Below, piece by piece: positions 1-486 of a stretch of DNA of 6,193 bases. The notes under the pieces were generated by a model. That model worked only from the letters and a program-made list of their open reading frames with translations, searched no databases and was not told where the DNA came from. Every line of letters starts with the position of its first letter. Position 1 is the first letter of the stretch. A program made the translations under genes and the position numbers. This DNA is from a virus. Taxonomy: Monodnaviria > Loebvirae > Hofneiviricota > Faserviricetes > Tubulavirales. Location: the IMG/VR virus record IMGVR_UViG_2663762857_000022; one strand, 5' to 3'.

Positions 1-486
1 ATGCTGATTGCATGGCTGGAAAAGCAGCAGCAGGAAAACGCCGGTGAAATGGAGCTGGCTGACCTTGAAGGTTTCTACCGCGATGCTAAAAAGCATTACG
101 ACGAGGATGAAGAGTTTGCCGAGCGTGCACGTAACTACGTGGTAAAACTGCAAAGCGGTGACGAATATTTCCGCGAGATGAGGCGCAAACTGGTCGACAT
201 CACCATGACGCAGAACCAGATCACCTACGATCGTCTGAACGTGACGTTGACCCGCGATGACGTCATGGGTGAAAGTCTCTACAACCCAATGCTGCCGGGT
301 ATCGTGGCGGACCTGAAAGCCAAAGGTCTGGCAGTAGAAAGTGAAGGCGCGACCGTTGTATTCCTTGATTTTTTCTGTCTCAGCTCTGATACAACCGTAG
401 ACGCAGGCAAAGGATGTGCAGGTGTCACGGTGCTTTCAGGCACAGGAGGGACAGCGGCACTAGCCTCCCGATCGCCGGAGAAATAA
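1..486 (+). CDS. Hypothetical protein, acidic and probably helical; may continue upstream of the window; unknown function
   Basis: 161-codon ORF with enterobacterial-type codon usage (CTG, GAA, CGT, AAA) and a protein-like charged N-terminal 120 residues. The last ~40 residues ([41 protein letters not shown]) look atypical. The 3' 208 nt overlap the pI tail on the opposite strand. Convergent with the phage genes. I do not recognise the family. Confidence 0.45.

Follow-up and report, generated by a model that had tools for sequence, protein, structure and literature searches.

An internal fragment of Escherichia coli argS joined to a truncated inovirus zot gene: a probable chimeric contig

Introduction

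The nearest named relatives of the inovirus considered here are the Vibrio phages fs2 and VFJ, which have a similar inovirus gene order and whose Rep proteins are 29 to 30% identical to its own over 85% of Rep. In another Vibrio system, CTXphi, the cargo genes ctxAB are carried directly after zot. What sets the present phage apart from fs2 and VFJ is the lack of any nucleotide-level match among deposited phage records; a nucleotide search of the whole window (i.e., the entire 6,193-nt stretch of DNA that was analyzed) against the deposited phage genomes returned no match. Judging from sequence comparisons, it appears to be known only as E. coli prophages, and about 40 of the 5,426 complete E. 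coli genomes carry a member of its prophage group. Our search of the literature on filamentous E. coli prophages returned work on other hosts only.

At one end of the window, a 161-aa ORF with an ATG start (1..486, + strand) is convergent with the Zot/pI ORF (279..1328, - strand; 349 aa). These coordinates bear out an earlier, sequence-only reading of the window, in which the two ORFs were described as convergent and as overlapping in antisense by 208 nt (i.e., 486 - 279 + 1). The same reading regarded the 161-aa ORF as an unknown gene with three possible origins: a host gene whose 3' end had been replaced by phage DNA at an integration junction near position 360, a phage cargo (moron) gene, or one member of a true antisense gene pair. 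It proposed protein and profile searches, and it named a comparison with empty sites as a way of placing the prophage boundary. The features of the window, as they emerged from our analysis, are given below.

1..369, + strand: internal fragment of argS (arginine-tRNA ligase), codons 168-290 of 577 (megablast, Pfam, TIGR00456, and protein alignment)
181, no strand: ambiguous base, N in the deposited contig and A in the window (window compared with the deposited contig)
279..369, - strand: tail in which the truncated zot reads on through antisense argS, 29 whole codons and a stop (alignment and run-length count)
369..370, no strand: host/phage breakpoint, 1 nt shared (three-way alignment)
370..486, + strand: read-through tail of the 161-aa ORF, 38 codons plus stop, antisense to zot, noncoding (no ArgRS homology past residue 123)
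370..1328, - strand: native part of zot/pI, codons 1-320 of 403 (alignment to the Zot of strain 100416, Pfam, and PHROG)
370..6077, - strand: colinear E. coli inovirus core, consisting of Rep, a 141-aa ORF, small ORFs, the major coat protein, pIII-like and pVI-like proteins, and the truncated Zot
6069..6193, no strand: region upstream of rep, regulatory and apparently of mosaic origin, reaching the contig end (no 100416-type match beyond about 6077)

Results

Origin of the ORF at positions 1 to 486

Bases 1..369 matched E. coli argS with 99.5% identity, and all of the bases were covered (369/369), in a megablast search of complete E. coli genomes. The segment was matched once and at full length on every complete E. 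coli chromosome (5,426/5,426); argS is a single-copy core gene. In strain SK1144, the match corresponds to argS nucleotides 502-870, so that codon 168 begins at window base 1. Protein alignment agreed with this placement: ORF residues 1-123 were collinear with ArgRS residues 168-290, and the last 38 residues (124-161) had no counterpart in ArgRS. The impression gained from sequence alone that the first 120 or so residues were native and the last 40 or so were not was therefore accurate. The description of the gene as unknown did not survive the profile search of its protein, in which the ORF matched Pfam tRNA-synt_1d (PF00750) with an E value of 4.4e-51.

The profile matches also delimit how much of the enzyme is present. 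The Pfam match extended only over profile positions 75-205 of 349, and the match to TIGR00456 (110.1 bits; cutoff for this equivalog family, 261.65 bits) extended only over positions 167-293 of 569 and fell below the curated threshold. Missing from the fragment are the N-terminal Add-1 domain, the anticodon-binding domain, and the remainder of the catalytic domain, as well as the HVGH (HIGH) motif. The HVGH motif, near residue 130 of full-length ArgRS, lies upstream of the fragment, and everything after residue 290 is absent. The ATG at base 1 is, as read from the alignment, the internal Met168 codon of ArgRS that happens to stand at the contig end and not a start codon.

Two mismatches separate the host arm from SK1144 argS, one synonymous (position 87) and the other an apparent Trp-to-Arg change (position 181). 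Position 181 is N in the deposited contig, where it is the only N; it is A in the window and T in native argS. We considered W228R as a sign of pseudogene decay and rejected it, because the N of the deposited contig had been filled in as A. Once this base is discounted, the number of true mismatches to the best argS match is one.

Two side observations concern argS sequences filed outside chromosomes. PHROG 15344, a family of unassigned function with 592 profile positions, matched the ArgRS fragment (9e-54), and ArgRS-like proteins are thus catalogued among phage proteins. Separately, argS is present on a 5,069-bp Klebsiella oxytoca "plasmid" record (NZ_CP069927.1), apparently a piece of chromosome deposited under that label.

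The inovirus part of the window

From base 370 onward, the window is an E. coli inovirus (best identity, 98.8% to prophages in complete genomes), and this part is an ordinary member of its E. coli prophage group. The inovirus module lies entirely on the - strand and encodes Zot, a pVI-like protein (119 aa), a pIII-like protein (428 aa; Phage_Coat_A), and a major-coat-like protein (86 aa). The 141-aa ORF sits where inoviruses carry the gene for the ssDNA-binding protein, and Rep (666 aa) is of the gpA, or "nicking at origin," type according to its profile matches. The length of the pIII-like protein varies, with 451 and 469 aa in relatives compared with 428 aa in the window; its Gly/Ser-rich linker (window positions 2100-2400) is visible as a peak in GC content (0.56 versus about 0.35 in the neighboring sequence).

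The native unit of the phage measures 8,739 bp and is tandemly repeated in strain 100416. Beyond the position at which the window breaks off, the native phage has about 2.9 kb more, comprising the 252 nt that complete zot, then one small ORF, a gene for a GspD-like secretin, and a second small ORF. All of this sequence (i.e., the zot end, the secretin gene, and the two small ORFs) is absent from the window. In intact relatives, the gene that follows zot is that for the GspD-like secretin, either directly or past one small ORF. The part of the 100416 phage that is missing from the window also contains, between the secretin gene and zot, a tandem direct repeat of about 300 nt (6028-6327 and 6340-6639 of the 100416 stretch; 94% identity; spacing, 312).

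At the other end of the window, 100416-type homology stops at about position 6077, just past the start codon of rep. The terminal stretch of about 125 nt (6069..6193) is 87 to 88% identical to the intergenic region upstream of rep in a different type of E. coli inovirus, one that carries a divergent HTH gene. This likeness suggests a mosaic regulatory module combined with a repeat-induced contig end. In complete genomes, perfect tandem copies were seen of both inovirus types, the 100416 type and the type with the divergent HTH gene; the gene set of the latter is repeated within an 18125-nt stretch, and the 100416 stretch is 1-15033.

Truncation of zot and the antisense overlap

The native Zot of strain 100416 has 403 aa. 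The window copy matches its residues 1-320 with two substitutions and then diverges, and residues 321-349 have no counterpart in native Zot. At the nucleotide level, the - strand carries 959 native nt of zot, followed by 29 whole codons antisense to argS and a stop; the 83 native C-terminal residues are thereby replaced by 29 nonsense residues. The retained part comprises the ATPase domain, the transmembrane segment, and the first 35 or so periplasmic residues, and most of the periplasmic domain is gone. The protein was recognized by both Pfam Zot (PF05707; 1.3e-9) and PHROG 1675 "protein I of M13" (9e-51). From these matches and the alignment, the window Zot appears to be a member of the family by descent that has been truncated.

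The overlap between the two ORFs is 208 nt long because both broken frames read on past the breakpoint to chance stops, and neither selection nor function is needed to account for it. Open runs of 38 and 29 codons are ordinary, given that the antisense frames of zot and argS often stay open for 30 to 91 codons. Moreover, in the native phage, the frame used by the tail of ORF 1..486 contains no ORF. The overlapped segment had been taken for the periplasmic tail of pI (279..491); this holds for 370..491, which is genuine Zot, and fails for 279..369, which is antisense read-through of argS. Separately from this overlap, a 58-aa ORF lies antisense to zot at 414-590 (+ strand) and is identical in the native phage (7046-7222 of the 100416 stretch). 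Its conservation is probably a by-product of the nucleotide identity of 98 to 99%.

The breakpoint and its occurrence

When the window was aligned with both of its native parents, argS and the phage, the switch from host to phage fell at 369/370. The breakpoint sequence is ...GTATTCCTTGA[T]TTTTTCTGTCTCAGC..., in which a single T is common to both parents. Both genes are cut there, argS at codon 290 of 577 and zot at codon 320 of 403. No direct or inverted repeats around the breakpoint and no target duplication were found in 1..1400.

The junction sequence occurred in none of the complete E. coli genomes (0/5,426), nor was it found in the GTDB one-genome-per-species set, the JGI metagenome contigs, or IMG/VR. 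The exact sequence of the chimeric 349-aa Zot was present on one contig only, CDQW01002537.1 of GCA_000936715.1. This contig is 6,193 bp long, and its positions 1-6193 are the entire window; judging from its number, the assembly consists of more than 2,500 contigs. No terminal overlap was detected between the contig ends, and there is hence no sign of a circular molecule. The chimeric Zot falls in a protein cluster of 519 members defined at 90% identity. Among the 15 members listed, the full-length ones all had 403 aa, and nearly all of the shorter ones were marked as partial. Clustering at this level hides chimeric variants inside the 403-aa cluster.

Related prophages in complete genomes

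In strain 100416, the tandem prophage pair (2.416-2.431 Mb) lies 430 nt from hipA, and argS (2,009,523-2,011,256) is about 413 kb from the prophage and co-oriented with it. In two O166:H15 strains (JNE070796 and AST240), nearly the same phage core is located between ybiB and hcxB. One phage core thus seems to have two modes of integration, i.e., between ybiB and hcxB and as a tandem pair near hipA. The O166:H15 strains also carry a gene for an IS110-family "RNA-guided transposase" directly upstream of rep, with a gap of 3 nt (coordinates in the O166:H15 stretches, 14842-15807 for JNE070796 and 14650-15615 for AST240); this gene is absent from the 100416 phage. XerCD/dif integration might have been expected for the 100416 prophage beside hipBA. 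We do not claim it, because the dif core was not found at up to 3 mismatches in the 100416 stretch, nor was it found in the window.

One of these complete genomes, AST240, contains a naturally truncated relative. The zot of its prophage ends at the equivalent of window position 561 and is convergently fused to a truncated dinG. Relative to its sister strain JNE070796, AST240 shows a simple deletion that has removed the 3' end of dinG, ybiB, a DUF2726 gene, the GspD secretin gene, and the 3' end of zot. The deletion region corresponds to 7439-9768 of the AST240 stretch compared with 3212-9960 of the JNE070796 stretch and represents real prophage decay across the host boundary.

Discussion

The sequence comparisons establish both parents, the exact breakpoint, the truncation of both genes, and the uniqueness of the junction in the collections searched. 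An internal fragment of argS abuts an inovirus genome that is itself cut inside zot/pI, and both broken frames cross 369/370 to the next chance stop, generating the 161-aa ORF, the 349-aa Zot, and their 208-nt overlap. We infer that the junction at 369/370 is an artefactual chimera, and we put the probability of this reading at roughly 0.7. The join itself would have been made in library preparation or in the assembly of a poor-quality draft and would not be a structure of the chromosome. Several features of the contig point in this direction: the host arm measures no more than 369 bp (which we take to be about one sequencing-insert length), it stands at a contig end and contains the only N of the contig, and the assembly is extremely fragmented. 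A single assembly carries the junction, which joins loci that are not adjacent and breaks genes, as would be expected of a chimeric contig. Furthermore, argS is essential. A chromosome with only this broken argS would not be viable, because the gene is both essential and single-copy.

How the artefact would have formed is constrained by the breakpoint sequence. In a de Bruijn graph, two sequences are normally misjoined where they have a k-mer in common. Since the parents share only 1 nt, at least one physical read or template must have contained the junction, which did not arise as a k-mer misjoin of this kind. A physical template fits a chimera of ligation or amplification, and it fits a real, rare molecule equally well. 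Against an artefact, the AST240 prophage shows that breakpoints on the zot side into host DNA occur in nature.

The main competitor of the artefact, possible but distinctly less probable, is therefore a real junction formed in the sequenced culture by illegitimate recombination with 1-nt microhomology, joining argS codon 290 to the interior of zot. The product could be the novel joint that forms when a large stretch is duplicated in tandem or excised as a circle, or else a defective hybrid phage-host replicon; in each form, intact argS would be present elsewhere, and ORF 1..486 would still be a nonfunctional fusion. The 1-nt overlap, which calls for a physical template and not a k-mer misjoin, is accommodated by such an event, and the zot-side breakpoint of the related AST240 prophage into a host gene offers a precedent. 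The geometry can also be made to fit. On the arrangement of strain 100416, the order of the window (argS, then zot) is a "later to earlier" head-to-tail joint, and the co-orientation of argS and the prophage there implies the topology of a tandem duplication or circle of about 413 kb, and not that of a deletion or inversion. A duplication or circle leaves intact copies of both genes and is viable. However, this geometry is borrowed from 100416, and the prophage site there may not be that of the source strain. Large duplications by nonhomologous joining are rare and unstable. The junction is, in addition, confined to a single contig in a highly fragmented draft, its host arm has only 369 bp and includes an N, and the contig ends without circular overlap. 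We consider it unlikely that the phage, or an integrated copy of it, recombined illegitimately inside argS, whether through rolling-circle replication out of the prophage or at the joint of a duplication or circle of about 0.4 Mb. If it did, the molecule would be a defective hybrid with host DNA in place of the phage export module, and the capture of host DNA by an inovirus would have been caught in the act.

The remaining explanations concern a stable chromosomal or phage structure. The phage might have been integrated just downstream of argS, with a deletion across the prophage-host boundary removing its secretin end together with the 3' half of argS. The convergent geometry would then be identical to that of the dinG-zot fusion in AST240, but the loss would be lethal, given that argS is essential and single-copy on 5,426 of 5,426 chromosomes; no related prophage was seen beside argS in any complete genome, and no match in any record spans both query arms. 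We regard such a deletion as very improbable. Still less can be said for a bona fide att junction, with the phage inserted into argS and its end at 369/370. The sharp switch from host to phage at that position is what an attachment site would look like, but the phage sequence there comes from within zot (codon 320 of 403), and the native genome runs on for about 2.9 kb. Intact relatives end beside hipA or between ybiB and hcxB, and there is neither a target duplication or repeat nor another lysogen with this junction. The proposal that phage DNA had replaced the 3' end of a host gene near position 360 was thus right about the host origin and close about the position (369/370), and wrong in taking it for an integration junction; the comparison with intact prophages puts the phage ends elsewhere, which is in effect the refutation that this reading itself had named, an empty-site comparison with the prophage boundary in another place. 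An equally negligible chance attaches to a cargo gene after zot or a genuine antisense gene pair overlapping it. The position after zot is where CTXphi carries ctxAB, and PHROG 15344 matches the ArgRS part, but bases 1..369 are argS, with one true mismatch to the chromosomal gene and with only an internal part of the enzyme (a "third") covered. The argS piece is found in no related prophage, and the secretin gene follows zot in them. As for an antisense pair, the overlapping segments are nonhomologous read-through on both strands, and the tail frame of ORF 1..486 is not open in the native phage.

Under all of these readings, ORF 1..486 is almost certainly an argS fragment fused to 38 nonsense residues and not a gene, and no homologue ending in these 38 residues was found elsewhere. 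As predicted from their domain content, neither of the two products could be functional: the ArgRS piece is without the HIGH motif and the anticodon-binding half, and the Zot is without most of its periplasmic domain. The 161-aa ORF and the 349-aa Zot variant should therefore not be annotated or counted as proteins; a large protein collection already contains the latter as a singleton. The window calls for caution in two respects. What appears as an ORF beginning at base 1 beside a mobile element can be part of a housekeeping gene that reads on across a breakpoint, and the meeting of two truncated genes can be enough to create a long antisense overlap. Should the junction be real after all, it would be a minor case of illegitimate recombination between an inovirus and a chromosome, without a functional product.

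Returning to the known systems, the likeness to ctxAB of CTXphi is confined to the position beyond zot; the window sequence at that position is host argS, and intact relatives have the secretin gene after zot. E. coli argS, the class I gene described by TIGR00456 and PF00750, is the closest counterpart of the host arm. The DNA agrees with the chromosomal gene except for one true mismatch, and the difference lies in what is retained, since ORF 1..486 keeps 123 of the 577 residues and continues with 38 nonsense residues. The dinG-zot fusion of AST240 resembles the window in involving a related inovirus (about 98% identical over zot), in the loss of the 3' part of zot, and in the convergent fusion with a host gene. 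It differs in being part of a complete genome and the result of a simple local deletion, in affecting a gene, dinG, that is dispensable, and in its breakpoint (561 versus 369 in the window); the host gene at the window junction is essential and lies about 413 kb from the prophage in the single complete genome that was checked. From the classic repeat-mediated misjoin, the window differs in that its parents overlap by only 1 nt. In its other properties, it is like chimeric draft contigs: its junction is unique, unrelated loci are joined, two genes are broken, and one arm is short and contains an ambiguous base.
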